38,649 bases of DNA, taken from contig CAMHMW010000001.1 of assembly GCA_946186335.1 (NCBI GenBank), positions 1 to 38,649 of the forward strand, read 5' to 3'. Origin of the DNA: an uncultured Candidatus Melainabacteria bacterium (GTDB lineage: Bacteria > Cyanobacteriota > Vampirovibrionia > Gastranaerophilales > Gastranaerophilaceae). A program made the translations under genes and the position numbers. The notes below the pieces were generated by a model. That model searched no databases, was not told the origin of the DNA, and saw only the letters and a list, made by a program, of their open reading frames with translations. Of the stretch, positions 3 to 23,752 are shown piece by piece (position 1 is the stretch's first letter; every line of letters begins with the position of its first letter).

Positions 3-3000
3 GCCGGATATGATGCAGCTCCGATAGGTGCTCCTCATGCGGAAGCTCCCGGTTCCGGCTTCATTGATAAGGTCAGAAAAATGTTCGGCGGGCAGAAAAC
101 TCCCGAGCAGATTTTAAATTCCACAAAACTTGAGGATCAGGTGAAAACCCTCAGTGTTCTCAAAAATCCTGACGGAACTCAAATGTATTCTGAGGCAGAA
201 CTAAAACAGGCACTGATACTTGCAAATAGCAACAATATACCGATAACATCAAAGGATTTATTTGCTATAGCAACAAGCGGTATGCCGAAAAAGGATGTTT
301 TATACACAATAAGCCACATATTTGATCATGACAGTCTTGCAATAACGAGAAAAATGACAAATTCTGACGGAATTATACTGAACGGTTCGGATTTGGTTCG
401 CTCAGGTTCCGTTTATAAATTTACTGCAATGGATATTCAGGAAGTCAGGATGTCTGTTTTAAATTCAAAAAATTCCGCAGAAACACTGAATTTCTTTAAT
501 GATTTAATAGATAACAGATTTAATACTCCGCTGAACAAGCAATTCGTTCAGTTACATGCAACACTGACCGGCGGCAGAACCCCCGATTCGGACGGTGATT
601 TGTTAAACTGGCTTTTGAAAAATGTTCAGGAACCCCAAAACAGAGAATCATTGATTAAAGGTTTAATCGCTTCAAAAAATGACGGCACGCCGATTATCCA
701 TTCTACAGTTTCGGAAACTTCCGTATCGGAAGCAGAATTGAGAGAAGCACCCGGCGGTGCATTTACTGACAGGTTGAAGAAAATATTTTCATCCGAATCA
801 GAAACAGAAAGATTATTAAAATCTACAAATACGGAAGACAAAGTTCGTATCCTGAGTGGAATACAAAAATCTGGAGATGCTGCTAAATTGTCGGAAGCCG
901 AGATTCGTGAAATATTGCAGTCAACTGATGTTGAAATTCCGACAAAAACATTGTATGCACTAATTTCTACTGATTACAAAGGCTACGGTTTTGCAGATAA
1001 TTTGAAAAGCATTATGTCTAATATAAAAACAGAGGACGATGCTCAATTAATTGCTGCTCTTGTCAAGGCTGATAAAGTTACTGTTAACGGCGGACAAATT
1101 ATTGCACCGGAGCAGAATTTAGATTTGCCTCAATTGTCTGTGGTACTTGAACATAAACATGAATCAGGCATAACAAATTATAATAAATTTATATCTGATT
1201 TGTTAGAAAACGGATGTTCTGAACCAAAGGATGTCGGCTTGTCTGATATTGGTAAAGATGGTCCGTTGACATTATGGGATGTGACTGCTGCCGTAAATAA
1301 TGATGAGCAAAAAGATGCATTGATTAATGTATTAAAATTTTATAATGCTAATTCCGGCGGCACAATACCCATGAAAAGTTTTGTTAACCCGACATTCGAT
1401 ATCCCCGCAAAAATTGATACAGATTTAAAATTTCAGGCATACAATTTACTTTTTGACGGTGGAAGTAACCGTTACAGTGCAGGTACTATGAATGAAATTA
1501 TTCCGCTGATAAAATCTGAGGCAGATTTACAAAATCTGAGAACGGCATTAAGTATAAAAGGTCTAGATGCAAAAACTGTTGTCGATACCGTAAAAAGCGG
1601 CGATGCTAATCCTGCCGTATTAAAAGCAAAGGTAAAAACATTACAGGGATTTGGTGCAGCCGAAGTAGATGAGTTGTGTGCAGTATATAATTTTGAACAC
1701 AGAGAAGCGGCTGTAAATCTTCTCCTGTTAAAATCATCAAGTCCTCACAGATATGACAAATTGGTTGAAAGCGGTTTGTTAGATTTAATTAAAGCAGGTA
1801 AGGTAAACGAAAACATATTAAAAAATATTGACAGAGATACCTTTCTCTCTAACAGAACATTAAAAGATATAAGAAAAATTCGCGATGGAGAATCACTGAT
1901 TAAAACACTGGATAAACCTGATGATTTGGTAAATATTTCTAAATTTGTTGAAAACGGAGATGTTTGTGAGTTTAACGGTAAATTATACGTAAATGACAGT
2001 GGCAAAGCGGTCGAAATAAAATTATCGAAAGAAAAATTCGAAGAATTATTCCCGCCTCTTACAAGAGTATCTTTTGAACAGAAAGGACTGGGTAACTGCT
2101 GGTTTGTATCTGTACTTGACAATTTGATGGATGCCCCGAAAGGTCGGGTTGAAGTATATAAGATGTTTGAACAGCAAGGAAATGACATTATTGTCAGATT
2201 CCCTGACAGTAAAGATGTCGTAAAATTTAAAAATGGAGAAGTTCTTGATGCTCACGGATACCAAATAGGAAACATTCAAGGTATATCAACAGATGCTTCT
2301 TCAAAAGGTATTTTGATGGTAGAACAGGCAACATCCGTTCACAGATTACAGGCAAAATCAAGAGGTTATAATCCTGAAACAGCAACAGTCAACGAAATCG
2401 GAGAATATGCCGCACAATATACGGATGTTGCGGTAATGATGGATAAAGCCGCAAGCGGCTGGCAGGGAAAAGCGCTTGAAGAAATCTTGGGTTCTGCATA
2501 TCCCGTAACAGGTATCAGCAGAATGGAAAAATACGGAACGGTCAGAATGCGTCAGGCAATAATTGAAAATTCAGCTAATCCCGACAAAATTCTTTATATG
2601 GGTACACGTGCAGATTTAACAACTGAAATTGAGGGTGAACTTTCTGTTGAATATGATTTATACTCCGGTCATGCCTATGCAATAAAAGGATATAACCCTG
2701 ATACAGATATGGTATATATTACAAATCCGTGGCATACATCCGTGGTAACAGAAATTCCAATGGATGAATTATTAAAATATATGGATAGTATAAATATTGC
2801 ACATATGGATAAAAATATGCCGTCAACTAATATGAGGAGTGCTGAGGCACCCGATGTACTGCCTCAGTCATCAGGAGGTTTCTTCAACAGAATGTTTGGT
2901 AGCAAAAATGAGCCCGATGTTTCTCATATCCAAAATAAAAACGTAAGAGGTAAGCTTACAACAAATCCAAATAAGTTGAACGCTTCTCCTGATTTGAGAG

Positions 3001-4529
3001 AAGGAACACATTTTGACCTGAAAATTAATGATAGAATAATGAACGGTGCTAATCTTGAGGGGTCACTTGTTAAAACACTAACTTCCCCCGCTCAGTTGAA
3101 TAACATTTCACGATTTGTCAAAAACGGAGAAGTATGTTCTGTCGGAAACAAGTTATATGTGAATCATGGTGGTACGCCTGTTGAATTAAAAATATCCAGA
3201 CAAAAATTTGAACAATTATTCCCGTCAGAGTTAAGCCTTAACATGACAGAACAGATGATCGGAACGGATATTTGCTGGATTGCTTCAAAAATAAATGCAA
3301 TGGTAAGTACACCACAAGGGCGGGCTCAGTTATATGAAATGCTTGAGGAATTACCAAATGGCGGAGTTACTGTTCATTTAAAAGCCGGAACGGTAAAAGA
3401 TGTAGAATTTCCTGACGGATTCCCGTTACCGGTTTCAGAGGCATCACTGGGCAATAATGCGGCTCTGGGTTTGAGTATGATTTTGCAGTCTGTTCTTGCT
3501 ACAACAAAACCGACAACAGTTGCGGCTACAAAAAATGTTGACATAAGAAGATTTAGACAGTTACAGCCCGGTCAAACTATGAATGACTTTGATATGCATG
3601 ACCTTGTTACCAATGCCTGCAGTATGGTATTTAACTCAAAATCGGCATTGAGTGCTTTGGGTAATTCTTCTAAACATCGTGACTATGTGTCAGGAGCGGA
3701 TATTCGTGCTGCAATAGAAAACTTCGTAAACGGGCGAGACAGAGCTACCGTTATTTGGAGCAGTCATGAAAAATCAATAGTGGCTTATGACAGAGCAAAG
3801 GGAACTGTTACATATCATGACCCTTATAATGGCGGAGTTGATGTCGAATGTTCATTGGATGATTTTGTAAATAATGCGGAAACGCTAATCGTATTTCCAA
3901 AACCCGAGCCTGCGCCTCAGGTGGTACACCCAACCGAAACAACCGTAAGAACAGATACTTTCATTCAGGAGAATACCCCGCAAAACATAATCAGTGCAAA
4001 TCGCTCTGTTGTTATTGACAGAATATACAGCGGAGATGTTCAGGCAACCGTTACTGCTGAAGGTAAAGTTTTGGTCACACTGGGTGACGGTCGTGAAATG
4101 CTTATTGACGTTCCGGCAGGTGGTTCTAAAAAAATATCAAATCATATAACTTTGTATAACGACAACGGAGTTATAACATTTGAAAATACCAAACAAACAT
4201 CATCTGTAAGAACCGCGGACAGAACAGAACAAGTTCATAACAGGGCGCACATCAGAGAGCATGTTACCCCTCAACAATTTGAACCGAAAAGGACATCACT
4301 TACTCATGAATGGCGTTCTGTTGCCCAAACGGCTGAAGGAAGTGACATACTTGCCAAATATAATCCTGTGGAAATGTCGGTAACAATTTCCAAAAACGGA
4401 AAGAACTATAATATTCCGTTGACAAAAGGTGAAAGTATTCCTGTTCACGAACAAAGTACAGGTCTGTACCTTATAGTAAAAATGGATAAATACGGTATAG
4501 TATCCATAACAACAAGTGAAACTCCATAA
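3..4529 (+). CDS. Very large modular protein, 5'-truncated by the window edge: N-terminal helical repeats, two calpain-like (papain-fold, C2-type) cysteine-protease cores, two C-terminal beta-rich modules
   Basis: The ORF track gives 81..4529 (1482 aa). The same frame is open from nt 3 to 80 (AGYDAAPIGAPHAEAPGSGFIDKVRK), so the ATG at 81 is probably internal. Calpain-type active-site blocks occur twice (see sub-features). There are no in-frame stops, and a strong partner ORF lies downstream. Confidence 0.75.
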   Translation, partial: AGYDAAPIGAPHAEAPGSGFIDKVRKMFGGQKTPEQILNSTKLEDQVKTLSVLKNPDGTQMYSEAELKQALILANSNNIPITSKDLFAIATSGMPKKDVLYTISHIFDHDSLAITRKMTNSDGIILNGSDLVRSGSVYKFTAMDIQEVRMSVLNSKNSAETLNFFNDLIDNRFNTPLNKQFVQLHATLTGGRTPDSDGDLLNWLLKNVQEPQNRESLIKGLIASKNDGTPIIHSTVSETSVSEAELREAPGGAFTDRLKKIFSSESETERLLKSTNTEDKVRILSGIQKSGDAAKLSEAEIREILQSTDVEIPTKTLYALISTDYKGYGFADNLKSIMSNIKTEDDAQLIAALVKADKVTVNGGQIIAPEQNLDLPQLSVVLEHKHESGITNYNKFISDLLENGCSEPKDVGLSDIGKDGPLTLWDVTAAVNNDEQKDALINVLKFYNANSGGTIPMKSFVNPTFDIPAKIDTDLKFQAYNLLFDGGSNRYSAGTMNEIIPLIKSEADLQNLRTALSIKGLDAKTVVDTVKSGDANPAVLKAKVKTLQGFGAAEVDELCAVYNFEHREAAVNLLLLKSSSPHRYDKLVESGLLDLIKAGKVNENILKNIDRDTFLSNRTLKDIRKIRDGESLIKTLDKPDDLVNISKFVENGDVCEFNGKLYVNDSGKAVEIKLSKEKFEELFPPLTRVSFEQKGLGNCWFVSVLDNLMDAPKGRVEVYKMFEQQGNDIIVRFPDSKDVVKFKNGEVLDAHGYQIGNIQGISTDASSKGILMVEQATSVHRLQAKSRGYNPETATVNEIGEYAAQYTDVAVMMDKAASGWQGKALEEILGSAYPVTGISRMEKYGTVRMRQAIIENSANPDKILYMGTRADLTTEIEGELSVEYDLYSGHAYAIKGYNPDTDMVYITNPWHTSVVTEIPMDELLKYMDSINIAHMDKNMPSTNMRSAEAPDVLPQSSGGFFNRMFGSKNEPDVSHIQNKNVRGKLTTNPNKLNASPDLREGTHFDLKINDRIMNGANLEGSLVKTLTSPAQLNNISRFVKNGEVCSVGNKLYVNHGGTPVELKISRQKFEQLFPSELSLNMTEQMIGTDICWIASKINAMVSTPQGRAQLYEMLEELPNGGVTVHLKAGTVKDVEFPDGFPLPVSEASLGNNAALGLSMILQSVLATTKPTTVAATKNVDIRRFRQLQPGQTMNDFDMHDLVTNACSMVFNSKSALSALGNSSKHRDYVSGADIRAAIENFVNGRDRATVIWSSHEKSIVAYDRAKGTVTYHDPYNGGVDVECSLDDFVNNAETLIVFPKPEPAPQVVHPTETTVRTDTFIQENTPQNIISANRSVVIDRIYSGDVQATVTAEGKVLVTLGDGREMLIDVPAGGSKKISNHITLYNDNGVITFENTKQTSSVRTADRTEQVHNRAHIREHVTPQQFEPKRTSLTHEWRSVAQTAEGSDILAKYNPVEMSVTISKNGKNYNIPLTKGESIPVHEQSTGLYLIVKMDKYGIVSITTSETP
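42..92 (+). repeat. Linker motif copy 1 (EAPGSGFIDKVRKMFGG)
   Basis: Translation of nt 42-92 in the frame of the giant ORF. It shares E-A-P-G-x-x-F-x-D-[KR]-x-[KR]-K-[IM]-F with copy 2. Confidence 0.7.
744..794 (+). repeat. Linker motif copy 2 (EAPGGAFTDRLKKIFSS)
   Basis: Direct translation. It sits immediately before the second N-terminal helical repeat unit. Confidence 0.7.
1896..2056 (+). repeat. Pre-protease module, copy 1 (intragenic duplication)
   Basis: LIKTLDKPDDLVNISKFVENGDVCEFNGKLYVNDSGKAVEIKLSKEKFEELFPP aligns without gaps to copy 2. Confidence 0.8.
2070..2790 (+). other. Calpain-like protease core 1 with an intact Cys-His-Asn triad
   Basis: EQKGLGNCWFVSVLDNL (Cys codon 2097-2099), YSGHAYAIKGY (His 2670-2672) and YITNPWHT (Asn 2724-2726) match the calpain blocks QGxLGDCW / GHAYS / RNPWG in the correct order and approximate spacing. 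Confidence 0.65.
2844..2903 (+). repeat. Linker motif copy 3 (EAPDVLPQSSGGFFNRMFGS)
   Basis: Direct translation. This looser copy lies between the end of protease core 1 and the second pre-protease module. Confidence 0.55.
3066..3226 (+). repeat. Pre-protease module, copy 2 (intragenic duplication)
   Basis: LVKTLTSPAQLNNISRFVKNGEVCSVGNKLYVNHGGTPVELKISRQKFEQLFPS. About half the residues are identical to copy 1, and nucleotide similarity is also visible. Confidence 0.8.
3246..3870 (+). other. Calpain-like protease core 2, a divergent variant with Cys-His-Asp
   Basis: IGTDICWIASK (Cys 3273-3275), WSSHEKSIVAY (His 3765-3767) and TYHDPYNGG (Asp 3819-3821). The His-to-Asx distance is 18 residues, identical to core 1. 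The core follows the same upstream module as core 1. Confidence 0.45.
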
Positions 4530-4537
4530 ATTTTATG

Positions 4538-4566
4538 TTGATAAAAATGTAAAAATAATGTAAAAT
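4538..4566 (+). promoter_or_regulatory. Candidate sigma70-type promoter, TTGATA-N17-TAAAAT
   Basis: TTGATA at 4538-4543, a 17-nt spacer and TAAAAT at 4561-4566. It lies 9 nt after the giant ORF's stop and 21 nt before the ATG at 4588. Confidence 0.45.
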
Positions 4567-4587
4567 GCAAATACAAAGAGGTTTAAT

Positions 4588-4935
4588 ATGGTTCCGAAAA
4601 TGAGTAATGAAAATCATTTAACAAAATATTTTAACAGATTACAGGCACAAATAGAACAGGCACAAAAAGATAATTTGCCGATAGAGCCTTATGTAAAAAA
4701 ACAGATACAGGTATTGCAGGAAGCCCACGATGAATTTGTTCTGGCAGCCCAAAAGGAAGGTATGGATATGGCAGATCCGCATGTGGGCGAAATTGAGGTT
4801 CAGCAATATACCCTGATGAAAGATTTGGCAACAAAAATTGGTATGTCACCCGAAAAGTACGACAAATTAATAAAAGATGTTCAGATACGTATTTTTGGGG
4901 AAGAAAATTATAAAAGATTTTTTGAAGGGAAGTAA
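4588..4935 (+). CDS. Hypothetical small helical protein (115 aa)
   Basis: SD AAAGAGG lies 6 nt upstream of the ATG. Composition is Lys/Glu/Gln-rich and helical-looking. I recognise no motif. Confidence 0.7.
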   Translation: MVPKMSNENHLTKYFNRLQAQIEQAQKDNLPIEPYVKKQIQVLQEAHDEFVLAAQKEGMDMADPHVGEIEVQQYTLMKDLATKIGMSPEKYDKLIKDVQIRIFGEENYKRFFEGK

Positions 4936-5033
4936 TTCTCTCTTTTTTTTACTGAATGTGAAGTATTTTTATATTTTATAAAAATATGCTAAAATAATCC
5001 TGAACTTTGTATTAAATAAGATGAGGACAAACT

Positions 5034-5999
5034 ATGAACGCATTATGGCAACACATTCAGGATATTTTGGGGCTCCCCGCTTTTTTAATAAATCAGTGTA
5101 ATTTTTTACCTGATTACGTTAAATTTGCGATTATTACATGTATAAGTTTTATACCGTGGTTGTATTTCCTATATTATGTAATTGAACTGATTGAAAGATT
5201 TGTTCTAAAACACATAAATACTTTCCTGAAATTAGCAAGAAGAGTCGGAGTATTTTTCGGTGCCGCAATATCTGTTATTCCCGAATCAGGTTATCAGGTT
5301 ATGGCAAGTACGTTTTATTCAAGAAAAATGATTTCAAAAGGTACTTTGCTGGCATTCTTTATTTCATGTTCCGATGATGCCCTGCCGCTTTTGTGTATGG
5401 ATTTCAGCAAGGCTCCGGTTATTATTCCGATTGTAATTGTTAAGACGGTTGTTGCTATTGTGGTTGGTGTTGTTGTTGATTTGATTTTCGTATTTAATAC
5501 AAAAATTGAAAATTCAAATCCTGTCAATCTTGATTTGAATGAACCCGCATGCTGCGACCATAAACTTATGACACAGCAGGTTCCGCCGTATTGGTGGATG
5601 CACCCGCTTATTCACACCTTTAATGTATTTTTGTTTGCAACTTTTGCTTTGATATTCTTTGAATTTTGTATTGCAAAGGGTTTTGGCAGTCAGGGTGCTA
5701 TGGCACAGGCAATGTTTATAGATTCTCCGATACAGGTTATAGGAGGTGCGTTGTTTGGTTTAATACCGAACAGTTTGACCTCAATATTCCTTGCTATTGC
5801 TTATTATAAAGGGTTAATAAGTATCCCGACACTGATTGCAGGTCTTATTTCAACAACAGGTTTGGGTCTGAATGCTTTGAGCAAATACAATAAAAATAAT
5901 ACCGATAATTCGTTTATCACGATAGTTCTTTTTGTAACGGCTGTCGTTACGGGCTTGCTGGCATATTATAATATGTTATGGCTTGGTATCGGAGGTTAA
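5034..5999 (+). CDS. Polytopic (about 10-TM) permease, paralogue 1; tentatively ArsP_2-type putative heavy-metal exporter family, 'Ser' variant
   Basis: SD GAGGA lies 6 nt upstream. There are about 9-10 hydrophobic segments and a central loop NEPACCDH. Motifs IPESGYQVMAS and GLIPNSLTS are shared with the downstream paralogue. Confidence 0.55.
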   Translation: MNALWQHIQDILGLPAFLINQCNFLPDYVKFAIITCISFIPWLYFLYYVIELIERFVLKHINTFLKLARRVGVFFGAAISVIPESGYQVMASTFYSRKMISKGTLLAFFISCSDDALPLLCMDFSKAPVIIPIVIVKTVVAIVVGVVVDLIFVFNTKIENSNPVNLDLNEPACCDHKLMTQQVPPYWWMHPLIHTFNVFLFATFALIFFEFCIAKGFGSQGAMAQAMFIDSPIQVIGGALFGLIPNSLTSIFLAIAYYKGLISIPTLIAGLISTTGLGLNALSKYNKNNTDNSFITIVLFVTAVVTGLLAYYNMLWLGIGG

Positions 6000-6006
6000 C
6001 GGACTA

Positions 6007-7032
6007 ATGGCGGCAATTCTGCATTTTCTGGTAACGACATTTCATTATCTGACAAATCTGCCGGAGCATTTAATTGAACCTATAGAATGGATGCCGGAGT
6101 TCTTGAAAGATGCGTGTATAGACAGCCTTAATCTTGTTCCGTTACTGTTCATAATTTTTGTAATACTTGAAATTATTGAGCACTATTTTGCAAAGAAAAA
6201 ACATTTAATAGTGTTCTGGATGAAGAAGATAGGTCCTTTATTCGGCAGTTTATTTGCATCTTTGCCCCAGTGCGGGTTTTCGGTAATTGCAAGCACGCTG
6301 TACGTTCGCAGAATACTCAGCAGAGGTACAATTCTTGCGGTGTATTTGGCAACCTCCGATGAGGCAATTCCCGTTATTATGGCGGAGCCGTCAAAGGGTT
6401 ATCTGATTTTGCCGATAATTTTGGTAAAAATATTTATAGCGGTAATTGTGGGTTATCTTGTGGATTTATTTATTGGGTATGAGGCAAAAGAGCCTGCCCC
6501 CTTGCATAAAGAACCCGAGCCTGAACATGAACACAAGCACGGCGAAGATTGTTGTGATTGTACTCATCATCCGAAAAGACTTCGTGATGCTATCAGGACA
6601 AAAGGTTTTTGGGTTCATCCCGTTAAACATACGGTAAATATTTTTGTATTCATTTTAATTATTTCCATAGCGTTGAGTTATTTTATGGAAGTTGTCGGAA
6701 CGGAAGAAAATCTTGCCAAATACTGTCTGATAAATTCTCCTATACAGCCGTTTTTGGTTTCATTGTTGGGTTTAATACCTAATTGTGCGGTTTCTGTCGG
6801 GATGACACTTTTATTTCTGAAACATACAATAAGTTTCGGGTCTTTGATAGCGGGCTTGTCCACTTCGGGCGGACTAGGACTTTTGATATTGTTTACCAAG
6901 AATAACGATAAAAAAGATACCGCAATAATTATAGGTATTTTGGTTGCGGTAAGTACGTCAGTCGGTCTTATATTACAATACAATGTGTTTGGTATAAATA
7001 AAATATTTTCTGTATTTGGTTTGGATTTATAA
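6007..7032 (+). CDS. Polytopic (about 10-TM) permease, paralogue 2; Cys-containing variant with a His/Cys-rich loop
   Basis: The track start at 5983 is a TTG overlapping the upstream gene. The ATG at 6007 follows GGAGG (5991-5995). Motifs are LPQCGFSVIAS and GLIPNCAVS, with loop EPEPEHEHKHGEDCCDCTHHP (6511-6573). It is collinear with paralogue 1. Confidence 0.55.
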   Translation: MAAILHFLVTTFHYLTNLPEHLIEPIEWMPEFLKDACIDSLNLVPLLFIIFVILEIIEHYFAKKKHLIVFWMKKIGPLFGSLFASLPQCGFSVIASTLYVRRILSRGTILAVYLATSDEAIPVIMAEPSKGYLILPIILVKIFIAVIVGYLVDLFIGYEAKEPAPLHKEPEPEHEHKHGEDCCDCTHHPKRLRDAIRTKGFWVHPVKHTVNIFVFILIISIALSYFMEVVGTEENLAKYCLINSPIQPFLVSLLGLIPNCAVSVGMTLLFLKHTISFGSLIAGLSTSGGLGLLILFTKNNDKKDTAIIIGILVAVSTSVGLILQYNVFGINKIFSVFGLDL

Positions 7033-7046
7033 TATAAGGATGATAC

Positions 7047-8522
7047 ATGGTTAAATCCTCGGAAAAATTAGAACAGGCATTAGAAATTCACAAAAAGGGG
7101 AATTTGACTCAGGCACGAGATCTGTATAACGAAATTTTGGCTGAAGAACCGGAGAACGCTCAGGTTTGGGATTTGCTTGGTGTTTTGTATTATCAGGCAA
7201 ATAAGTTTGAAAAAGCGGAAGAATTTATAAAAAAAGCAATATCTTTAAACCCCCGTCTTTATTATCTGGAAAATCTTGCAAGGGTGTATCTTGATAAGGG
7301 TGATTACAAGGTTGCATCAGGACTTTATGAAGATATAGTTCAGCATTCTCCGACTTATGAAAACAGTTTTAACCTTGCTATGTCATATAAAGGTGCGCAT
7401 GAATGGGAAAAGGCAAAAGCAGCATACCATAAATCTCTCGAGATAAATCCGAAAGGTTATGAATCATATTTTAATCTTGCTTACCTTGCTTTAAATGATA
7501 ATGAACCGCAGGAGGCTATTCGTTGTTATGAAAAAGCGTTAGAGATAAATCCCGAGGATTGGGAATCTGTGTATTTCCTCTCGCTTGCTCAGATGCAGAC
7601 AAAAGATTACAAAAACGGGCTGAAAAATTTTGAATCCCGTCTGTGCCGTCAAAGTGCAATATTATCTCAGGAAAAAATATACCCTAATCTTATGAAAACC
7701 AGACCGCTGTGGGAAGGTCAGGATTTAACGGATAAGGTTTTGTTTACTTATTATGAAGCAGGTTATGGTGATTTGCTGATGCTTTACCGCTTTATGCCGG
7801 TATTGACCAAAATGGCAAAAAAAGTCATAATAAAGCCTCAAAAAGAACTTGCACCGTTATTCAGAGAAAATTCGTACGGGGCGGAGGTTATTGAAATTTT
7901 TGATTTTGAAAAGGAAATTGATTTTGATTATCATATACCGTTTTTGAGTGTTCCTTATGTTTTAAAATGTAATGCTCAGGATATGTTTATTCACCATGAT
8001 GACGGGTATTTGAAGGCTAATCCGCCGAAGGTGAGATATTATAAAGAAAGGTATTGTGAAAACGATAAGTTTAAAATAGGCATAAAGTGGCAGGGAAATA
8101 CCCATTATGACAGAGAAAGAGTTATAAATGTCACAGACTTTTTCCCGCTTTTTGAAATTTCAGGCACACAGTTTTATTCATTTCAGACACTTGACGGTTC
8201 TGAGGAATTTGAAAAGTTAAAAGATAAATGTAATATTATAAATCTTGGGGAAACATTTTCTAATTTTTCGGATACTGCGGGGGCGCTGGAAAATATGGAT
8301 TTGATAATTTCAAATGATACATCTTTGGTTCATCTTGCAGGCGCTATGAAAAAACCTTGCTGGGTACTGTTACCATATATTTATAACTGGCGGTGGCATA
8401 CGGATTTAACAAAATGCGACTGGTACGACAGTGTAAAAATATACAGGCAAAAAGATCATGGCGACTGGAACAGTGTTTTTACAAAGGTTAAGGAGGATTT
8501 GAGCAGTATAATAAATATGTAA
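7047..8522 (+). CDS. TPR-repeat protein with a C-terminal GT9-like (heptosyltransferase-fold) glycosyltransferase domain
   Basis: The N-terminal ~200 aa are TPR-like (e.g. AQVWDLLGVLYYQANKFEKAEEFIKKAISLNP). The C-terminal blocks GIKWQGN..H..DRER, FSDTAGALENMDLIISNDTSLVHLAGAMKKPCWVLLP and NWRWH match the TPR+GT9-like family as I recall it. Confidence 0.6.
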   Translation: MVKSSEKLEQALEIHKKGNLTQARDLYNEILAEEPENAQVWDLLGVLYYQANKFEKAEEFIKKAISLNPRLYYLENLARVYLDKGDYKVASGLYEDIVQHSPTYENSFNLAMSYKGAHEWEKAKAAYHKSLEINPKGYESYFNLAYLALNDNEPQEAIRCYEKALEINPEDWESVYFLSLAQMQTKDYKNGLKNFESRLCRQSAILSQEKIYPNLMKTRPLWEGQDLTDKVLFTYYEAGYGDLLMLYRFMPVLTKMAKKVIIKPQKELAPLFRENSYGAEVIEIFDFEKEIDFDYHIPFLSVPYVLKCNAQDMFIHHDDGYLKANPPKVRYYKERYCENDKFKIGIKWQGNTHYDRERVINVTDFFPLFEISGTQFYSFQTLDGSEEFEKLKDKCNIINLGETFSNFSDTAGALENMDLIISNDTSLVHLAGAMKKPCWVLLPYIYNWRWHTDLTKCDWYDSVKIYRQKDHGDWNSVFTKVKEDLSSIINM

Positions 8523-8590
8523 ATGTTTCGTTTACATGGTGGCAAAACTTTTTTTGACGGGGTTTATAAAAAATAAAAAATGAAAGGATT

Positions 8591-9349
8591 ATGAATATGG
8601 TAGAAGCGATTAATGGTGTGAATTCGAATAACAATGCATGGGCTTATACGGCAGGCGGAGCGGCAGCCGGTGCTGTTGCGGGCGGACTTGGCGGATATAT
8701 GTCAAAACCTTATGTAAGAAACTATTTGCCGACAGATGGTTTTTGTGATGCTTTCGTTTCACAGTTGAGAAAAATGAACCCAAATGAAGCAAAACAGTTT
8801 GACGAAGGGGTTGAATTTGTCAAAAATCTGGATTCTGTGGAGCCGTTAAAATTCAAGATTAATGTGCTTGTATCAAAGGTATTTGAAAAACTTGATGATG
8901 AAAAATTTGCACAGTTAAAAACTGCAGTTGCACAGAGTCAGGAAAAGATTAAATCATCAGGTATAGAGGGTGCGGAGGCTATCAGTAAATTTGCTGATGC
9001 AATCGTAAATGCCGAAAACCCGGCACAATTGAAAGGTACGGTTTCTAACCTCATAAATAAAGGACTGGACAGTTTAGATGTTAATACAATAAAAGATTTT
9101 GTAAAAACAATTGAAGATAATTCAAAAATAATTAAAAAAGCAGTCGGCTCAGCTGCTTTCTTCCATAATTTTGACATAACAAACAAAAAATTCTTTGAAG
9201 TTGAAGGAGATCCGTTCAATGCAATGGTAAGAAAAGCGGCAAAACATGTACAACTGAAAACAGCAGGCATTTATGGTGCTATAGGTGCTGCCGTTGTCGG
9301 TGCGGGAGCATATCTGGCATCAGCGCTGTCAAATAAAAACAACGCATAA
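8591..9349 (+). CDS. Hypothetical protein with Gly/Ala-rich (glycine-zipper-like) hydrophobic segments at both termini and a helical central domain
   Basis: N-terminus AYTAGGAAAGAVAGGLGGYM; C-terminus AGIYGAIGAAVVGAGAYLASAL. SD AAAGGA is upstream. The start could be the ATG at 8591 or 8597. Confidence 0.65.
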   Translation: MNMVEAINGVNSNNNAWAYTAGGAAAGAVAGGLGGYMSKPYVRNYLPTDGFCDAFVSQLRKMNPNEAKQFDEGVEFVKNLDSVEPLKFKINVLVSKVFEKLDDEKFAQLKTAVAQSQEKIKSSGIEGAEAISKFADAIVNAENPAQLKGTVSNLINKGLDSLDVNTIKDFVKTIEDNSKIIKKAVGSAAFFHNFDITNKKFFEVEGDPFNAMVRKAAKHVQLKTAGIYGAIGAAVVGAGAYLASALSNKNNA

Positions 9350-9367
9350 TAACAGTTATAAAATAGT

Positions 9368-9399
9368 AAAAAGGAGTGTCTTTCAGGCACTTCTTTTTG
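9368..9399. terminator. Candidate bidirectional hairpin terminator between convergent genes
   Basis: AAGGAGTG (9371-9378) pairs with CACTTCTT (9388-9395), including one G-U pair. It is flanked by an A-run and a T-run. Confidence 0.4.
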
Positions 9400-9402
9400 T
9401 TG

Positions 9403-11796
9403 TTATTTTGTCTGGAATTCGTTTTTTAGTTCGTATTTTTTACTTTTGGGTTCGTAGGTAAAAATTTTATATTCGTTGCCATCTGAGGATATTTTTACCG
9501 AATTGTGCAAATCTGTTCTGTAAATTTCGGTATTTCTTAAAACATCAAGGGTTCCTTTGTTCGGATGTCCGAAATAATTTATACCGGTTGAAATTACGGA
9601 AATTTTGTTGTTGAGGTGCGTGAGCATATCTGTGTTTACAACCCTTGGACCGCCATGATGTCCGACTTTTAATATTTCAACATCATGCGGAATATCCTTT
9701 TTTACCTGATTAAACGATTCATATCCCGCATCACCCATAAAAAGCATATCAAAATTTTTGTATGATACAAGTGTTATGACGGAACACCCGTTACTCTCGT
9801 CTTTCCCTTTAATATCCGCTTTATAGGTTTTTATTTTTAAGTCTTTTTCGCTGTATATTTCTTCGTTATTGTTTACGATTTTATAATTCTGTCCCGTTTG
9901 GTTTATAGTTCTGAAAATACTTTTACCGGTATAGGTATCTGTGCTGCGGGAATTAAGATAGAGTGTTTTTGTCCGGGTATTTGTTATAACATCTGAGGTT
10001 CCGCCGGCATGGTCGTTATCAAAGTGGGTAACAATAACCCCTTCCAAATTCTTAATACCTCTATCTTTCAGATATTTAAGCATTATGATTTTTGCCTGAG
10101 AATTTCCGCTCTCAAACGGGGCTTTGCCGGTATCTATCATAAAGTATTTATTTTCAGGTGTTTTAATCAGGAAGGAATCAGCATTCTGTACGTCAAACAT
10201 GATTATTTCAAGGTCGTGTGATACGGGTCTTACCGTTGTCAGAAGCAGAATGACGGATATTATTCCGATTGTTGCAATTGCCTGTTTGTATTTGTCGTAT
10301 TTGATAAGGAAAGTTGCTCCTGCAATCATCGAATAATACAGAATAATCTGAAAAATATTCGGGTGAGTTGTTTGCAGAAGGCAGAATTTAAGATTACCAA
10401 AGAAATCAGAGATTATTACAAGTAAATCAAGTAAGTGTTTCAGATAAAAATCAAAAGTAAAACAGGTAAAATCAGCAAATTGCGGAATTATTGAAATTGC
10501 GGAACTCACAAATCCGCAGAAACTTATCACGCTAACCAGCGTAACGCTTGCAATATTTGCAAAAACGGAATAGAGGCTGAACGTATTAAAATAAAACATC
10601 TGAATCGGGGCAACCCAAATTTGTGCAATAATCGGAATAATAACGGGTAAAATAAGCCAATTCGGAATGACCGAAACTTTATTTGCCGCCATATTAACGG
10701 TTAACAAAAGTCCCAGAGTTACCATAAAAGAAAGCTGAAAACTTACGTCATTTATGTATGCGGGGTTATAAATCAGCATAAGAACGGCGACAAAGGACAA
10801 TAGAGAAACGCTGTGCGCATCTCTGTCCAAAAGTTTTCCGATAAGAACAAATATCAGCATGAGTGCGGCACGTATTACGGATGCTCCGAGTCCCGTCATA
10901 AAAGTGTATAATACAATTACGCCCATTCCTGAAATTACTCTCGGACGAAACGGAACTCTAAGAAGTTTTAGGATAAAAAACCAAAAGGTGAAAATAAACC
11001 CGACATTCATCCCTGATGCTGCCAGAATATGCAAAAGCCCCGAATTAATGAAAGAGTTTTTGATATAATCCGGCGGAGAAACCGCATCATCTCCGAAAAC
11101 AATTCCGCCCAAAATCTCTAAACTAGGACTGTCAAGATATTTTGAATGTGTTTCAATGATTCTGTTTCTTGTATCATTGAGTTTTTGGAGTATCTTCCAT
11201 TTAAAACCGTCAGGTTTTGAAATTTCTGTAATTTTATTCCCATCTGTGTAAAATGTTGTAAAAGTATTGAAATTTCGCAGATATGCGCTGTAATCAAACT
11301 GTGACGGGTTTGTGGATGAAAACGGACGGCGCAGTTTTCCTGAAACTTTAATTTTTTCGCCGATATTCAGTGGTTGTTTTAAGTCTTTTGAATTTGAAAT
11401 TGTAACGAAAGTCTTTGCTTTAATACTATTTTTGTCTGCCTGCTCAACTTCCAGAAAGAATTTTGTTTTGTCGTTGTCGGTATATTCGGGGATACTGACA
11501 ATTGTACCTGACAATTCCGTTGTCGCAGGTGTCATTTGTAAAAGTTCATCATAATTCTTTATTTTAAAAAATGTTAAGAAAAATCCCGCATAGAAAATAA
11601 AAACAAAAATGAAAATCTTTTTAATATCAAAAATTTTTAAATAGAGTAATATAAGCATTACAGCCGTGAAAATCATACCGCTCGGGATGGCTATATTGTA
11701 AAAACAGGCAAGAATTCCGCTCATGAATACAAATGAAACAAATAGCATAACAAAATTCTTGTTTTGTATGAGTTCGAGAAATAATTTATTTTCCAT
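9403..11796 (-). CDS. comEC: DNA internalisation competence protein ComEC/Rec2 (membrane channel plus C-terminal metallo-beta-lactamase domain)
   Basis: 797 aa with a multi-TM central region. The C-terminal MBL-type block is VIVTHFDNDHAGG ... KVGHHG. The size and architecture are typical of ComEC. Confidence 0.85.
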   Translation of the reverse strand: MENKLFLELIQNKNFVMLFVSFVFMSGILACFYNIAIPSGMIFTAVMLILLYLKIFDIKKIFIFVFIFYAGFFLTFFKIKNYDELLQMTPATTELSGTIVSIPEYTDNDKTKFFLEVEQADKNSIKAKTFVTISNSKDLKQPLNIGEKIKVSGKLRRPFSSTNPSQFDYSAYLRNFNTFTTFYTDGNKITEISKPDGFKWKILQKLNDTRNRIIETHSKYLDSPSLEILGGIVFGDDAVSPPDYIKNSFINSGLLHILAASGMNVGFIFTFWFFILKLLRVPFRPRVISGMGVIVLYTFMTGLGASVIRAALMLIFVLIGKLLDRDAHSVSLLSFVAVLMLIYNPAYINDVSFQLSFMVTLGLLLTVNMAANKVSVIPNWLILPVIIPIIAQIWVAPIQMFYFNTFSLYSVFANIASVTLVSVISFCGFVSSAISIIPQFADFTCFTFDFYLKHLLDLLVIISDFFGNLKFCLLQTTHPNIFQIILYYSMIAGATFLIKYDKYKQAIATIGIISVILLLTTVRPVSHDLEIIMFDVQNADSFLIKTPENKYFMIDTGKAPFESGNSQAKIIMLKYLKDRGIKNLEGVIVTHFDNDHAGGTSDVITNTRTKTLYLNSRSTDTYTGKSIFRTINQTGQNYKIVNNNEEIYSEKDLKIKTYKADIKGKDESNGCSVITLVSYKNFDMLFMGDAGYESFNQVKKDIPHDVEILKVGHHGGPRVVNTDMLTHLNNKISVISTGINYFGHPNKGTLDVLRNTEIYRTDLHNSVKISSDGNEYKIFTYEPKSKKYELKNEFQTK

Positions 11797-11831
11797 AATT
11801 CCAACGAATGTATGATACCATGTTAAAAATA

Positions 11832-11860
11832 TTGTGTAAAATATAATTATATGCTAGAAT
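11832..11860 (+). promoter_or_regulatory. Candidate promoter for pilT, TTGTGT-N17-(TGc)TAGAAT
   Basis: TTGTGT at 11832-11837, extended -10 TGCTAGAAT at 11852-11860, about 30 nt before the ATG at 11890. It lies in the 93-nt divergent region shared with comEC. Confidence 0.45.
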
Positions 11861-11889
11861 ATAAATACGTTAGAATAAGAGGATAATAT

Positions 11890-12984
11890 ATGAGCAGCAC
11901 TAATGATTTTTATATTGAGGACTTTTTAAGACAGGCAGTATCTGTCGGTGCTTCCGATGCTCACATCTGTGAGGGAGAGCGTCCTGCAATAAGAGTTTCC
12001 GGTCAGATTATGAGAATTAACCTGCCGCCGTTAACGAGTGAAGATATAGAATTTGTAATCAGAACTGTTGCTCCTCAGCACTTGAAAGACAGAATTACAA
12101 GATTTTTTGATATTGACTTTTCATACGAAATACCGGGATGTTCAAGATTCCGTATCAACATGAGCCGTCAGCTCGGTAAAACGGCGATGGTAATTCGTGC
12201 AATTCCGTATTATATCAAAACTTTTAAAGAATTATATCTTCCGTCAACATTGGAAGAATTGGCTCAATATAACAACGGACTTATTCTTGTAACAGGTCCG
12301 ACAGGTTCGGGTAAATCAACGACGATTGCTTCTTTGATTGATTACATCAATGCAACATCGTCAAAACACATTGTTACGATAGAAGACCCTGTGGAATTTA
12401 TTTTTTCAAATAAAAAGTCTATTGTTTCACAGCGTCAGTTATTGATTGATACTCCGTCATTCCCTGACGGTGTTAAGTACGCATTAAGACAAGACCCTGA
12501 TGTTATATTCATCGGTGAAATTCGTGACAGAGAAACTATTGAATCTGCGCTGAAAGCGGCAGAAACAGGTCACCTTGTTGTATCAACAATCCACACCAAC
12601 GACTCTGTTCAGACGGTTGAACGTATTATCAACTTATTTGAACCCGGTGAAAGACCTTTCGTAAGAACTCAGATTGCACACTCCATGAGAGGGGTTATTT
12701 CACAGAAACTTGTTCCGACAGCAGAGGGCGGAACACGTATGCCGGCGGTTGAAGTGCTGGTTGTTACACCGACAGTTAAAGACTTTATTCAGAAAGACGA
12801 ACTCGATCAGGTTTATGAACTCGTTAAGAAAGGTTCTTTCAACAACATGGTAACAATGAATATGTCATTGTTTGCTCTGTATGATGAAGGCAAAATTTCA
12901 AAAGAAACCGCGATTGCATACTCTGATAATAAACCTGAACTTGAACAAATGATGAGAGGGGTTTACTACGGTACAGGAACATAG
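11890..12984 (+). CDS. pilT: Type IV pilus retraction ATPase, PilT/PilU family
   Basis: 364 aa. Walker A is GPTGSGKSTT, Walker B/Asp box is DPDVIFIGEIRD, and the His box is GHLVVSTIHT. SD AGAGGA is upstream. Confidence 0.85.
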   Translation: MSSTNDFYIEDFLRQAVSVGASDAHICEGERPAIRVSGQIMRINLPPLTSEDIEFVIRTVAPQHLKDRITRFFDIDFSYEIPGCSRFRINMSRQLGKTAMVIRAIPYYIKTFKELYLPSTLEELAQYNNGLILVTGPTGSGKSTTIASLIDYINATSSKHIVTIEDPVEFIFSNKKSIVSQRQLLIDTPSFPDGVKYALRQDPDVIFIGEIRDRETIESALKAAETGHLVVSTIHTNDSVQTVERIINLFEPGERPFVRTQIAHSMRGVISQKLVPTAEGGTRMPAVEVLVVTPTVKDFIQKDELDQVYELVKKGSFNNMVTMNMSLFALYDEGKISKETAIAYSDNKPELEQMMRGVYYGTGT

Positions 12985-13027
12985 TTTCTGTTCTTATACC
13001 CTGTGAAATACAAATAATCTCTCTTGC

Positions 13028-13819
13028 ATGCTTGGGGAAGATATGCAGAACAGTTTTGTTACGGATGCTATAAATTTAAAATCCTATAATCTGAGCGAAT
13101 CAGACAAAATTATTGTCATGTATTCAAAAGATAAAGGGCTTATCCGCGGGGTTGCAAAAGGGGTTAAAAAGCCGAAAAGCAAACTCGGTGCGAGAATGGA
13201 TTTGCTTGTAGCAAACACTTTAATGCTCCATAAAGGCCGTAACCTTGATACTATTTGTCAGGCGGATGTTTTAAATTCTTTTTATAAAACAAGACAGGAT
13301 ATTGATAAAATCTGTTATTCAACTTATATAACAGAGGTTGTCCATAATTTCGGGGTAGAGGATGACCCGTGTTCGGAAAAAATATATGAACTGTTGTATA
13401 AGGCTTTGAACAGTGTTTCTGTTGCAGAAAATAAAGTTGAAATCATGCTTGCGGTTATAAAATTCCAGATGAAAATGATGATAGAATCAGGATTTTCAAT
13501 TGAACTTGACGACTGTCTGTGCTGTCACAAGTCCGTTGAAAACTCTAACATGTACTTTGTTCCGACACTTGGCGGAATTGTGTGCGAAGATTGCGCTTCA
13601 AGGGTAATGCAGAATAAAAAATTACTTCCCTTTAAAATGAGAGATTTTTTTAAACAGATGGCATGTAATGATTTTGATGTAAAAGGCGAATACGAGCAAA
13701 AAGCAAATGAAAAAGTCTGTGATGTAACTTTTGAACTTCTGAAAGAATACATTATGCTCAAATCTCCCAAAAAGTTCAAATCAACGAATATTCTTGGTGA
13801 AATTCCCCTTTATAAATAG
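13028..13819 (+). CDS. recO: DNA repair/recombination mediator RecO
   Basis: The N-terminal OB-like region is AINLKSYNLSESDKIIVMYSKDKGLIRGVAKG. The C-terminal zinc motif is CLCC...CEDC. Length is typical. The alternative start at ATG 13043 cannot be excluded. Confidence 0.75.
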   Translation: MLGEDMQNSFVTDAINLKSYNLSESDKIIVMYSKDKGLIRGVAKGVKKPKSKLGARMDLLVANTLMLHKGRNLDTICQADVLNSFYKTRQDIDKICYSTYITEVVHNFGVEDDPCSEKIYELLYKALNSVSVAENKVEIMLAVIKFQMKMMIESGFSIELDDCLCCHKSVENSNMYFVPTLGGIVCEDCASRVMQNKKLLPFKMRDFFKQMACNDFDVKGEYEQKANEKVCDVTFELLKEYIMLKSPKKFKSTNILGEIPLYK

Positions 13820-13905
13820 TAGTTTATTATATACAATATAGTGAAGATATAAATATTACTCCGACAAAACAGGTCGTACAAAATTAATTTTTAATATGAC
13901 CTATT

Positions 13906-13945
13906 TTGACACATTAACCGTTTATTATAAAAATGTGATAAACGG
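13906..13945 (+). promoter_or_regulatory. Candidate promoter with an overlapping 8-bp inverted repeat upstream of the AAA+ gene
   Basis: A perfect -35 TTGACA lies at 13906-13911, with -10 candidates TATAAA/TAAAAA at 13926-13933. The inverted repeat CCGTTTAT (13918-13925) / ATAAACGG (13938-13945) straddles the -10. Confidence 0.35.
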
Positions 13946-13963
13946 AAATAAGGAGTAAATAAA

Positions 13964-15949
13964 ATGAACAATTACGAAAAGAGAAAATTTTTGGATTATT
14001 TCAGCAAGTTATTAAATGATTTGGATCTTAGTTCTTACATGTTTGATGAAGTTTTTAATTTCTTTCTTGCGGAATTTAAAGTCAGTAAGAAATTATTTCC
14101 CTATGATGAGGATGATGAGTTAAAAGTGGGTAAAGCAAAAGAGCGGGTAGAGTTTTTGAAGATTCTGAACAAGGTTTTGAGTGAACTGAAAGAAAAAATT
14201 AAGCCGAGAAACACTGTGCTTGAAACTCAGTTTTTGACGATAAAAGAAATTTATATGTTGAATAACGAAGAATATGAAATTATGCAGATTCTTGCACTTA
14301 AAGAAATAAATAATATTTTTAACAGATTTTTTGATTCTATAAATCATTCGCCTTTAACAACGTTTTCGAGGGCATATTTAAAAATGAGATACGGGAAAAA
14401 AGAACGGGTAATGGAATCTTTGTATTTTAAAAATATATTGGAGGACAGACGTTGTGAATCAATAAATTCCTCATTGATTAAAATTTTTGACAATCCGAAA
14501 TGCAATACGCAGGATAAAATTGTCAATGTAATTATTGGAAATCAGGAAAAATCAAAATTATCGTTATCCGATTACAAACATTTGAAAGATAAGCCTGAAA
14601 AAGCGGTGAGAATATTAACATCAGCAGTTGAGCATAAGAAAAAGGGTGTAAATATTCTGTTATACGGCGGAGTGGGAACCGGAAAAACCGAATTTGCGAA
14701 ACTTATTGCAAATAATGCGGGGGTACCTATGTATTCGGTTATTACTCAAAAGAGCGACTATAAAGAACCGGACAGAGAAGACCGTCTTGTAGATTTATAC
14801 TCAAAACAGCATCTTTTGGCTCGTTCAGACAGGGCATGTATTTTGTTTGATGAAGGAGAAGATGTTATGAACAGGGGTTTTTCTGCTTTTGGCGGGGCAT
14901 CAAAGGGTTATCTGAATAATCTTCTGGAAACTTCATCTGTTCCTGTAATCTGGACAACAAATGATATTTATCATGTTGACCCTGCATTTTTAAGACGTAT
15001 GACATATTGTATTGAGTTTGAGAAATTGTCGGAGGAAACGAGATTAGATATCTGGAAAAAACTTCTGAGGAAAAATAAACTCAAAGTTGAGGATTCAAAA
15101 CTTGCCGAGTTGAATAAATCGTATGATATTCCGCCGTCTTTGATAGCGAATGCCGTTGAATCAACAAAAATGATAGACGGGAATGAAAATGACTTTGAAG
15201 ATTTTATTGAAAATGTTGCAAAGGTTGTTACAAAAAGGAAAAATGTCAAAACCCAAAAGGACTTTGAGATAAAGACTTATGACATAAATCTTGTTAATAC
15301 GGATACCGATATGGATGATTTAACCAAAAAAATCAAAAATGCAGGTAAATTGAATTTCTCTCTGTGTTTGTACGGTGAACCCGGAACGGGTAAGAGTTTA
15401 TATGCAAGGTATCTGGCAAATATACTCGGGTTAGAGGTGGTATTTAAGCGGGCATCAGATTTGATTTCAAAGTGGCTTGGGGAGACTGAACAGAATATTG
15501 CCGCCGCTTTTGATGAGGCAAAATCAAAGAAGGCTATGCTGATTTTTGATGAAGCGGATTCTTTCCTCCATAACAGAAATAATGCCCAGAGAGGCTGGGA
15601 GGTTTCTCAGGTTAATGAAATGCTGACGTGGATGGAATCTCATGAATATCCTTTCGTCTGTACCACAAACCTTTTGAAAACCCTTGATGAAGCTAGTTTA
15701 AGACGCTTTACTTTCAAAATAAAATTTGATTTTCTTTCAAAAGATCAGGTAAATTCGGCAATAGAACACTTCTTCGGAATAAAGGATGCAAATGTTAATA
15801 TCAAAGGTTTGACGGCGGGTGATTTTGCTACCGTTAAAAAGAAAATTGATTTTCTCGGCATTAAAGATTTGACTGAGATTACCAAAATGCTGGAAGATGA
15901 GGTGAAGGTCAAAAAATCAGAAAATCTGCAAAGTACCGTTGGGTTTTAA
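13964..15949 (+). CDS. Tandem AAA+ ATPase (two classic AAA modules) with an unknown ~220-aa N-terminal helical domain
   Basis: SD AAGGAG is upstream. Module 1 has Walker A GGVGTGKT and Walker B CILFDEGED. Module 2 has GEPGTGKS and MLIFDEADS with SKWLGETEQ. Both modules end in LRR[MF]-type motifs. Confidence 0.75.
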   Translation: MNNYEKRKFLDYFSKLLNDLDLSSYMFDEVFNFFLAEFKVSKKLFPYDEDDELKVGKAKERVEFLKILNKVLSELKEKIKPRNTVLETQFLTIKEIYMLNNEEYEIMQILALKEINNIFNRFFDSINHSPLTTFSRAYLKMRYGKKERVMESLYFKNILEDRRCESINSSLIKIFDNPKCNTQDKIVNVIIGNQEKSKLSLSDYKHLKDKPEKAVRILTSAVEHKKKGVNILLYGGVGTGKTEFAKLIANNAGVPMYSVITQKSDYKEPDREDRLVDLYSKQHLLARSDRACILFDEGEDVMNRGFSAFGGASKGYLNNLLETSSVPVIWTTNDIYHVDPAFLRRMTYCIEFEKLSEETRLDIWKKLLRKNKLKVEDSKLAELNKSYDIPPSLIANAVESTKMIDGNENDFEDFIENVAKVVTKRKNVKTQKDFEIKTYDINLVNTDTDMDDLTKKIKNAGKLNFSLCLYGEPGTGKSLYARYLANILGLEVVFKRASDLISKWLGETEQNIAAAFDEAKSKKAMLIFDEADSFLHNRNNAQRGWEVSQVNEMLTWMESHEYPFVCTTNLLKTLDEASLRRFTFKIKFDFLSKDQVNSAIEHFFGIKDANVNIKGLTAGDFATVKKKIDFLGIKDLTEITKMLEDEVKVKKSENLQSTVGF

Positions 15950-16044
15950 CCCTCGGTATTTTTTTGTCTGTATTGACATTTATCCCCAAATATGAGAGAT
16001 TTAAGGAAACTAACCGAATTTCTCAAGATAAAGGATTAAGACCT

Positions 16045-23672: not shown

Positions 23673-23752
23673 CTTTTATGTTTTCTTCCTATGTGTTATA
23701 TTAAATAGTATAGTATCATAAAAATTTTTTGAATAGGTCGAAAGTACTATTT

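Follow-up and report, generated by a model that had tools for sequence, protein, structure and literature searches.

We report that a giant modular protein from an uncultured Candidatus Melainabacteria bacterium (order Gastranaerophilales) contains two protease cores that are related to those of the calpains, and that this tandem is a fusion of two old paralogous subtypes, which we call type 1 and type 2. The gene is at the 5' end of the forward strand of contig CAMHMW010000001.1 (GenBank assembly GCA_946186335.1), which we analyzed over its whole length of 38,649 nucleotides (the window), and it is followed by a small gene on the same strand, which we call the partner gene. What is new is a lineage-specific expansion of calpain-like proteases within giant proteins, along with a subfamily that uses aspartate instead of asparagine as the third catalytic residue and a partner gene that is matched to the type of protease.

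The gene for the giant protein (nucleotides 3-4529, forward strand) is a single stop-free frame of 1508 codons that ends with a TAA at 4527-4529. As the first-pass annotation of this DNA had noted from its letters and open reading frames, the frame is still open at the 5' edge of the window. The first ATG is at nucleotide 81, and similarity between internal repeats begins upstream of it, at amino acid 14, so the true start must be beyond the window. Because the window is the entire contig, the gene is truncated at its 5' end by the end of the contig; collinear relatives are 3007-4139 amino acids long. When the first 246 amino acids were used to look for the missing 5' end among metagenome contigs, no relative turned up. 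(Our residue numbers are those of the first-pass annotation plus 26.)

Judged by sequence profiles and predicted structure, core 1 (type 1; amino acids 691-935, nucleotides 2073-2807, forward strand) appears to belong, as a divergent member, to the calpain family (Pfam Peptidase_C2, PF00648). It carries a glutamine, cysteine, histidine, and asparagine in the order of the calpain blocks: Gln693 (nucleotides 2079-2081), Cys699 (2097-2099), His890 (2670-2672), and Asn908 (2724-2726). The three motifs in which the first-pass annotation had recognized calpain blocks are all present, namely GLGNCWFVS from amino acid 695, SGHAYAIKGY from 888, and ITNPWH from 906. Searched on its own, core 1 scored 24.5 bits (E = 1.7e-5) against PF00648, which is marginally above the gathering score of 23.8 bits. 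The type-1 units of relatives give a clearer picture, as 28 of 31 match PF00648 (E ≤ 0.01; best 4e-9). Furthermore, a profile of the type-1 family matched calpain-9 (PDB 2p0r) with E = 1.2e-6, and the family's blocks QGxLGDCW, HAYS, and NPW aligned onto the blocks of calpain-9. An AlphaFold model of core 1, built on the type-1 alignment, had a mean predicted local distance difference test (pLDDT) of 85.2 and a predicted template modeling (pTM) score of 0.87. When this model was compared to the PDB with Foldseek, the top 27 matches were all calpain cores, although the similarity was moderate (best E = 1.7e-6, template modeling (TM) score 0.51). Searching the PDB with single sequences (the whole protein, or core 1 alone) gave only chance matches, and no part yielded a useful match to NCBIfam.

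Core 2 (type 2; amino acids 1083-1300, nucleotides 3249-3902, forward strand) is supported by hhalign, an AlphaFold model, and residue conservation. It retains the glutamine (Gln1084, nucleotides 3252-3254), the cysteine (Cys1091, 3273-3275), and the histidine (His1255, 3765-3767), but has Asp1273 (3819-3821) in place of the asparagine of calpains. These residues lie in or near the motifs GTDICWIAS (amino acid 1087), SSHEKSIVAY (1253), and YHDPYNG (1271). The distance from the histidine to the asparagine or aspartate is 18 residues in both cores, and thus the blocks and the spacing that had been described for core 2 are correct. Neither core 2 nor any of 24 type-2 units that we tested matched the Pfam C2 model, and a profile of the type-2 family had no match among PDB sequences; type-2 units did have weak matches to models of C70, C39, and NlpC/P60. 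Nevertheless, the type-1 and type-2 profiles aligned to each other with a probability of 100 (hhalign, E = 2e-59, 263 columns). The AlphaFold model of core 2 was confident (pLDDT 91.7, pTM 0.90), and its first matches in the PDB were the cores of calpain-3, calpain-1, and calpain-9 (E = 1.5e-4), again with moderate similarity (TM 0.44-0.45). These profiles and models indicate that type 2 is a sister subfamily of type 1 that is missed by the present Pfam model for calpains. The earlier remark that the tandem could not be placed in any described family does not hold for core 1; core 2, by sequence, is not a member of Pfam C2.

To see how well the catalytic residues are conserved, we counted them over 154 protease units from 150 relatives. 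The cysteine is present in all 154 units, and the histidine is absent only from truncated units and from one variant with leucine. The third residue in type-1 units is asparagine in 107 cases and aspartate in 10. Type-2 units have the cysteine in 31 of 31 cases, the histidine in 31 of 31, and the aspartate in 30 of 31. The glutamine, which is found 6-7 residues ahead of the cysteine, does not vary in the type-1 alignment and is almost invariant in type 2; in calpains, this glutamine forms the oxyanion hole. In both models, a helix begins with the cysteine, a strand begins with the histidine, and the asparagine or aspartate is at or just past the end of the next strand, which is the layout of the papain fold. 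The predicted structures, in which calpain cores ranked first, thus agree with the catalytic residues that had been named in the first-pass annotation. Because all of the catalytic residues are kept in both cores, both are probably active enzymes.

We searched for relatives using a 305-amino-acid core as the query, and found at least 529 cluster representatives at E < 1e-3 (129 at E < 1e-30), with lengths of up to 5661 amino acids. Species-representative genomes contain 65 loci, most of which are labelled as Gastranaerophilales or Melainabacteria, and several of which are from gut or rumen samples. The best of these loci is 50% identical to the window protein, and the window's own genome is not represented among these genomes. 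Several genomes have at least two loci. Some loci have other labels: Muribaculaceae (L007, L010, and L060), Fusobacterium sp. (L020), or Heliobacteriaceae (L026). Loci in bins labelled as other phyla may be mis-binned contigs of Gastranaerophilales, or they may reflect gene transfer. A phage origin was also considered and was rejected, as no relative was found on viral contigs.

Local domain maps of the relatives distinguish two kinds of protease unit. A type-1 unit has a helical domain, then a module of about 54 amino acids, and then the core, while a type-2 unit has the module and the core followed by one to four repeat domains of about 80 amino acids each. Type-1 units ended within 15 amino acids of the protein's C-terminus in 96 of 123 cases, but no type-2 unit did so. 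Type-2 units are mostly found in separate proteins of about 800-1400 amino acids. Since both types are old subfamilies and usually reside in different proteins, the tandem in the window is a fusion of the two, and not a recent duplication. It had been proposed that the module and the protease were duplicated in tandem; a fusion of old subtypes is the better reading.

The double core is not restricted to the window. Proteins P0006 (3413 amino acids), P0007 (4056 amino acids), and P0012 (3007 amino acids) and the 4139-codon frame at locus L005 all have type 1, then type 2, and then the repeats, in one frame. They are collinear with the window protein and are from other assemblies. We considered whether the tandem might be an artefact, in which a misassembly or a lost stop codon joined two neighboring genes. 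The giant gene is cut by the contig end, and type-1 proteins usually stop 5-10 residues beyond the position at which translation of the window's frame continues. However, the window's frame has no stop through the junction, the type-1 partner gene trails the entire fusion, as it does at L005, and a misjoin would not recur in the same order in independent assemblies. We therefore view an artefact as extremely improbable.

Other combinations of units also occur: there are two type-1 units in L003, L044, and P0016, and four in P0020 and L064. In P0020 (4875 amino acids) and L064 (frame 2603-17233), the four type-1-like units are spaced along the protein, each of them is interrupted by a long insertion after the module and before the part with the histidine and asparagine, and no partner gene follows. 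At loci L066, L067, and L068, which represent one species in three samples, the giant gene, upstream of the small protein P0154, was called as 1847, 1823, or 862 amino acids, and the neighbors are otherwise identical. This suggests a change in length, or a disruption, at the level of strains.

The partner gene (nucleotides 4588-4935, forward strand) begins 58 base pairs past the stop codon of the giant gene, has a ribosome-binding site (AAGAGG) upstream, and encodes a hydrophilic protein of 115 amino acids with no signal peptide. A profile search found a copy of the partner 5-100 base pairs downstream of the giant gene, and on the same strand, at 41 of 64 loci. It is the only conserved neighbor across the loci. 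The family has 189 clusters in a large database; among the 120 of these that were listed, we found no Pfam domain and no name beyond "hypothetical." The partner's sequence had no match in the PDB, and against Pfam it had only sub-threshold matches (DUF4168, WHD_MCM8, and Nif11). We also asked whether the partner might have arisen from a segment of the giant protein, in the way that Spi derives from the propeptide of SpeB, and rejected this idea (hhalign probability of 0.4). There is a promoter-like site at 4538-4566, between the stop codon of the giant gene and the partner (TTGATA, 17 nucleotides, and TAAAAT; 10 of 12 matches), so the partner may also be transcribed alone. After the partner gene, we found no consensus terminator, and the local fold was no better than that of shuffled sequences.

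The clusters of partner proteins split exactly by the type of the adjoining protease. Two clusters always adjoin type-2 proteins (12 loci), and all of the others always adjoin type-1 proteins. Furthermore, the nearest neighbor of the core predicted the partner's cluster at 33 of 35 loci. At locus L044, where the two type-1 cores differ in subtype, exactly the two partners that match them are present, and L003 is alike; genomes with both type-1 and type-2 loci have the matching partner at each. The window's partner is of the type-1 kind. This pattern shows that the two genes duplicate and diverge together. It also fits, but does not prove, specific binding between the partner and the core. From its position and its match to the protease subtype, we infer that the partner could be a cognate inhibitor or chaperone.

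The rest of the giant protein is a scaffold of repeats and modules. (To compare the protein to itself with blastp, we used split segments rather than the intact sequence.) Two helical repeat units are found near the N-terminal end of the window protein: copy 1 is at amino acids 14-176 (nucleotides 42-530, forward strand), with the motif EAPGSGFIDKVRKMF just before it, and copy 2 is at amino acids 248-408 (nucleotides 744-1226, forward strand), with the motif EAPGGAFTDRLKKIF just before it. The two copies are 27.6% identical (blastp, E = 7e-16), which agrees with the related helical repeats described in the first-pass annotation, and in the domain maps of relatives, this repeat unit precedes type-1 cores. 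A further helical domain (N3; amino acids 481-630, nucleotides 1443-1892, forward strand) was recognized from local phmmer domain maps and directly precedes the type-1 unit in most relatives.

Each core follows a copy of the module. Module 1 (amino acids 631-690, nucleotides 1893-2072, forward strand) is a three-stranded sheet and a helix that ends with KFEELFPP. It is the counterpart of module 2, and it was modelled with a pLDDT of 91-97 across model residues 1-50. Module 2 (amino acids 1021-1082, nucleotides 3063-3248, forward strand), which was identified as a blastp repeat, had a pLDDT of 95-98. As had been reported, and at the positions that were given, the module of about 54 amino acids is repeated before the second core: amino acids 631-779 and 1021-1173, which include the module and the region around the cysteine, are 34.6% identical (blastp, E = 1.6e-28). 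Between the two units is a linker of 85 amino acids (936-1020, nucleotides 2808-3062, forward strand), which in relatives is 530-1000 amino acids long. At the C-terminal end are two copies of the repeat domain of about 80 amino acids that trails type-2 cores in relatives (copy a, amino acids 1319-1410, nucleotides 3957-4232; copy b, amino acids 1419-1508, nucleotides 4257-4526; both on the forward strand). A direct BLAST comparison of these copies was not significant (E = 0.22), but jackhmmer profiles from the two copies converge on the same repeats of relatives, so a single domain is present twice, as the first-pass annotation's two related beta-rich modules had implied.

A short motif, EAPG..F.D..KK.F / GGFFNRMFG, is found at the boundaries between units: at amino acids 13-30 (nucleotides 39-92), 247-264 (741-794), and 946-968 (2838-2906). 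The last of these is within the linker, as AEAPDVLPQSSGGFFNRMFGSK. The form GGFF-x-K/R occurs within 130 amino acids ahead of the unit in 8 of 29 type-2 cases and in 0 of 113 type-1 cases, compared to a background of 1%. The boundary motif might serve for cleavage, or it might form an amphipathic helix.

Full-length relatives provide clues as to what is missing from the 5' end. No hydrophobic signal peptide was found in the full-length relatives that we examined. Many of the giant relatives start with about 20-25 residues that end with L-x-x-(L/I)-K-(G/A/S)-G, and this leader presumably resembles the double-glycine leaders that are handled by peptidase-containing ABC (ATP-binding cassette) exporters. 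The leader is hydrophilic (for example, VDLNSIKGG) and was seen in loci L002-L007, L010, L036, L039, and L055 and in proteins P0006, P0007, P0054, and P0120. A regular expression for the leader matched 14 of 114 representatives that start with methionine, of which many are probably fragments, compared to 4% of control windows; the count is therefore a rough one. Right after the leader, near residues 30-95, full-length relatives have EF-hand loops, and near residues 335-455 they have LysM, which was above the Pfam threshold in L002, L006, and L039. Some of the smaller relatives have a different, helical N-terminus. The presence of LysM suggests contact with peptidoglycan, so the giant protein probably acts outside the cytoplasm.

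We lean, by no great measure, towards the following account as a whole: the giant protein is an exported calpain-type double protease that binds peptidoglycan, and a cognate partner restrains its core. The giant protein would be exported independently of a Sec signal peptide, and would bind peptidoglycan via the LysM that is known from full-length relatives. The proteases would then act on targets outside the cell or on the giant protein itself. The small partner would stay in the cytoplasm of the producing cell, where it would bind its cognate core and keep it inactive or competent for export. The logic of such a gene pair would be like that of the staphopain-staphostatin operons of Staphylococcus (scpAB and sspBC), in which the gene for a papain-fold protease is followed by the gene for a type-specific partner of about 110 amino acids that lacks a signal peptide. 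The partner described here resembles the staphostatins in its position, its size, the lack of a signal peptide, and its matching to the type of protease. However, it has no sequence similarity to them; staphostatins are beta-barrels, and our partner appears from its sequence to be helical. Also, staphopains are small proenzymes that are exported by Sec, while the cores described here are domains of giant proteins.

Several observations weigh against this account of an exported and restrained double protease. All of the functional claims rest on sequence and on predicted structure. The match of core 1 to PF00648 is marginal, and within the full protein it scores just 18.7 bits, which is below the cut-off of 23.8. 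The window and L005 have a type-2 core and no type-2 partner, only a type-1 partner, and no partner at all is present at 23 of 64 loci. Joint inheritance and duplication would be enough to explain why partner and protease co-vary, without any binding. The partner, which looks helical by sequence, could not be related to known protease inhibitors by sequence searches. EF-hand, LysM, and the leader are attributed to the window protein from relatives that are 30-45% identical to it, and our survey of neighboring genes found no known secretion-system gene linked to the loci.

Alternatively, the giant protein might be a self-processing scaffold, whose cores cut the giant precursor in cis at the linker motifs, after export or upon a calcium signal, and thereby release modules. 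Calpains do autolyse upon activation, full-length relatives have EF-hand loops that would bind calcium, and the protein has many modules whose release could be of use. The motif EAPG..F..K.F / GGFFxK at the unit boundaries (amino acids 13, 247, and 946) is also consistent with this idea, and it is enriched upstream of type-2 units, but the GGFF-type motif is not found upstream of type-1 units (0 of 113). In 96 of 123 cases the protease is at the extreme C-terminus, unlike known autoprocessing domains. MARTX and the large clostridial toxins are the obvious comparison, as they are giant modular exported proteins with their own cysteine protease (for the proteins described here, export is a prediction). 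Their protease is of clan CD (C80) and is internal, while the cores here are calpain-like (clan CA) and usually terminal, and we found no Pfam match to C80 or to RTX repeats in the window protein or in the relatives that we scanned. Self-processing would also leave the retention of a type-matched partner gene unexplained. On these grounds we consider it unlikely that the giant protein is a self-processing scaffold.

The combination of an enzyme domain at the C-terminus of a long protein and a small, type-matched cognate gene directly 3' of it is also seen in interbacterial polymorphic toxins, where the downstream gene encodes an immunity protein that guards sister cells (Zhang et al. 2012, PMC3482391). 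In this view, the C-terminal protease would be a toxin that enters competitors. Other features of the cassette would fit with a toxin as well: its genomic surroundings vary, and a genome may have several copies of it; the length of the protein differs among strains (1847, 1823, or 862 amino acids); and a papain-like toxin/immunity pair (PDB 9l5u) was among the weaker structural matches. But the pattern of conservation is the reverse of that of polymorphic toxins, in which the C-terminal domain varies and the N-terminus is conserved: here the protease and its partner are conserved, and the N-terminal regions differ in content and in length (about 400 to more than 5000 amino acids). Nor did we find a known trafficking domain or a linked secretion system; the only domains that were found are EF-hand and LysM, and the match to RHS_core scored 20 bits, compared to a cut-off of 2000. 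The partner's lack of a signal peptide fits a target in the cytoplasm, but it fits an inhibitor that acts in the producer equally well. A toxin/immunity system thus seems improbable to us.

A role in the cell envelope is another idea that the papain fold brings to mind: the cores might be peptidoglycan peptidases or amidases, or might cross-link proteins as transglutaminases do, and the giant protein would then be a remodelling or structural factor of the envelope. LysM in full-length relatives points to peptidoglycan, and LysM combined with a papain-fold hydrolase is a common design for cell-wall enzymes. The Cys-His-Asp triad of type 2 is of the transglutaminase type, and the weak matches of type 2 to C70, C39, and NlpC/P60 could be read in the same way. 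Yet both models match the two-lobed core of calpains first, and neither NlpC/P60 nor transglutaminases are among the top matches. Type 1 has the calpain blocks QGxLGDCW, HAY, and NPW, and a cytoplasmic partner would be unexpected for a cell-wall enzyme. We think that there is little chance that the cores are enzymes of this kind.

Compared to the calpain family, the cores described here share the two-lobed core with a papain fold, and core 1 shares the blocks QGxLGDCW, HAY, and NPW; calpains also gave the best matches by sequence and by structure. Nevertheless, the cores are just 10-14% identical to solved calpains (in Foldseek alignments), and the spacing from histidine to asparagine is 18 residues, while in classical calpains it is 24. 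Core 2 diverges further, as it uses aspartate and escapes the Pfam model. Homologues of calpain are known from other bacteria, including Tpr from Porphyromonas gingivalis (Rawlings 2015, PMC4631099), and as in those homologues, the cores occur in an unrelated domain context. The bacterial homologues were described as rare, with a single core and with one homologue per bacterium, and as lacking calcium sites (PMC4631099). All three points of the description "rare, one per genome, single-core" are broken in one lineage: the family has hundreds of members, several genomes have at least two loci, and a protein may have up to four units, or, as in the window, two cores of different types. As for calcium, the EF-hand loops of the relatives are at the N-terminus, far from the cores. 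Another difference from the described calpains is the matched small partner gene that trails the protease gene.

In the literature that we searched, we did not find any paper that links calpains with Gastranaerophilales, Melainabacteria, or Vampirovibrionia. The Gastranaerophilales are common gut bacteria and are non-photosynthetic relatives of cyanobacteria; their genomes are small, and there has been hardly any experimental work on their biology. For such bacteria, proteins of 2000-5600 amino acids are a large investment, so these proteins probably matter in dealing with neighbors or with the host. Profiles for the type-2 core and for the partner would give names to several hundred proteins that are now "hypothetical," and the partner could represent a novel type of protease inhibitor. 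A bolder version of our proposal is that the partners, of about 110 amino acids, form a new class of type-specific inhibitors or immunity proteins, and that the giant proteins are weapons or surface machines that employ calpain-like domains and are exported by an unusual route, with a leader that ends in Gly-Gly or Ala-Gly. This is speculative and we would not expect all of it to hold, but if it were true, these uncultured gut bacteria would have their first described functional system, and there would be a bacterial pair of calpain and inhibitor that parallels calpain and calpastatin.

The other genes in the window are ordinary chromosomal genes, with about 37% G+C. Two adjacent and overlapping paralogous genes at 5034-7032 encode proteins of 321 and 349 amino acids; both match ArsP_2, a putative metal exporter with 10 transmembrane segments, over the first half of the model only. 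A 577-amino-acid open frame at 18382-20115 has no Pfam match at E ≤ 1e-5, and a trio of small genes at 26256-27315 matches YtxH, DUF948, and YtxH, respectively. Finally, the window encodes a protein of 682 amino acids with SLH domains (32782-34830) and a MurT-type ligase (23729-25096), which is consistent with a diderm relative of cyanobacteria and with the assignment to the Gastranaerophilales from the relatives of the giant gene.

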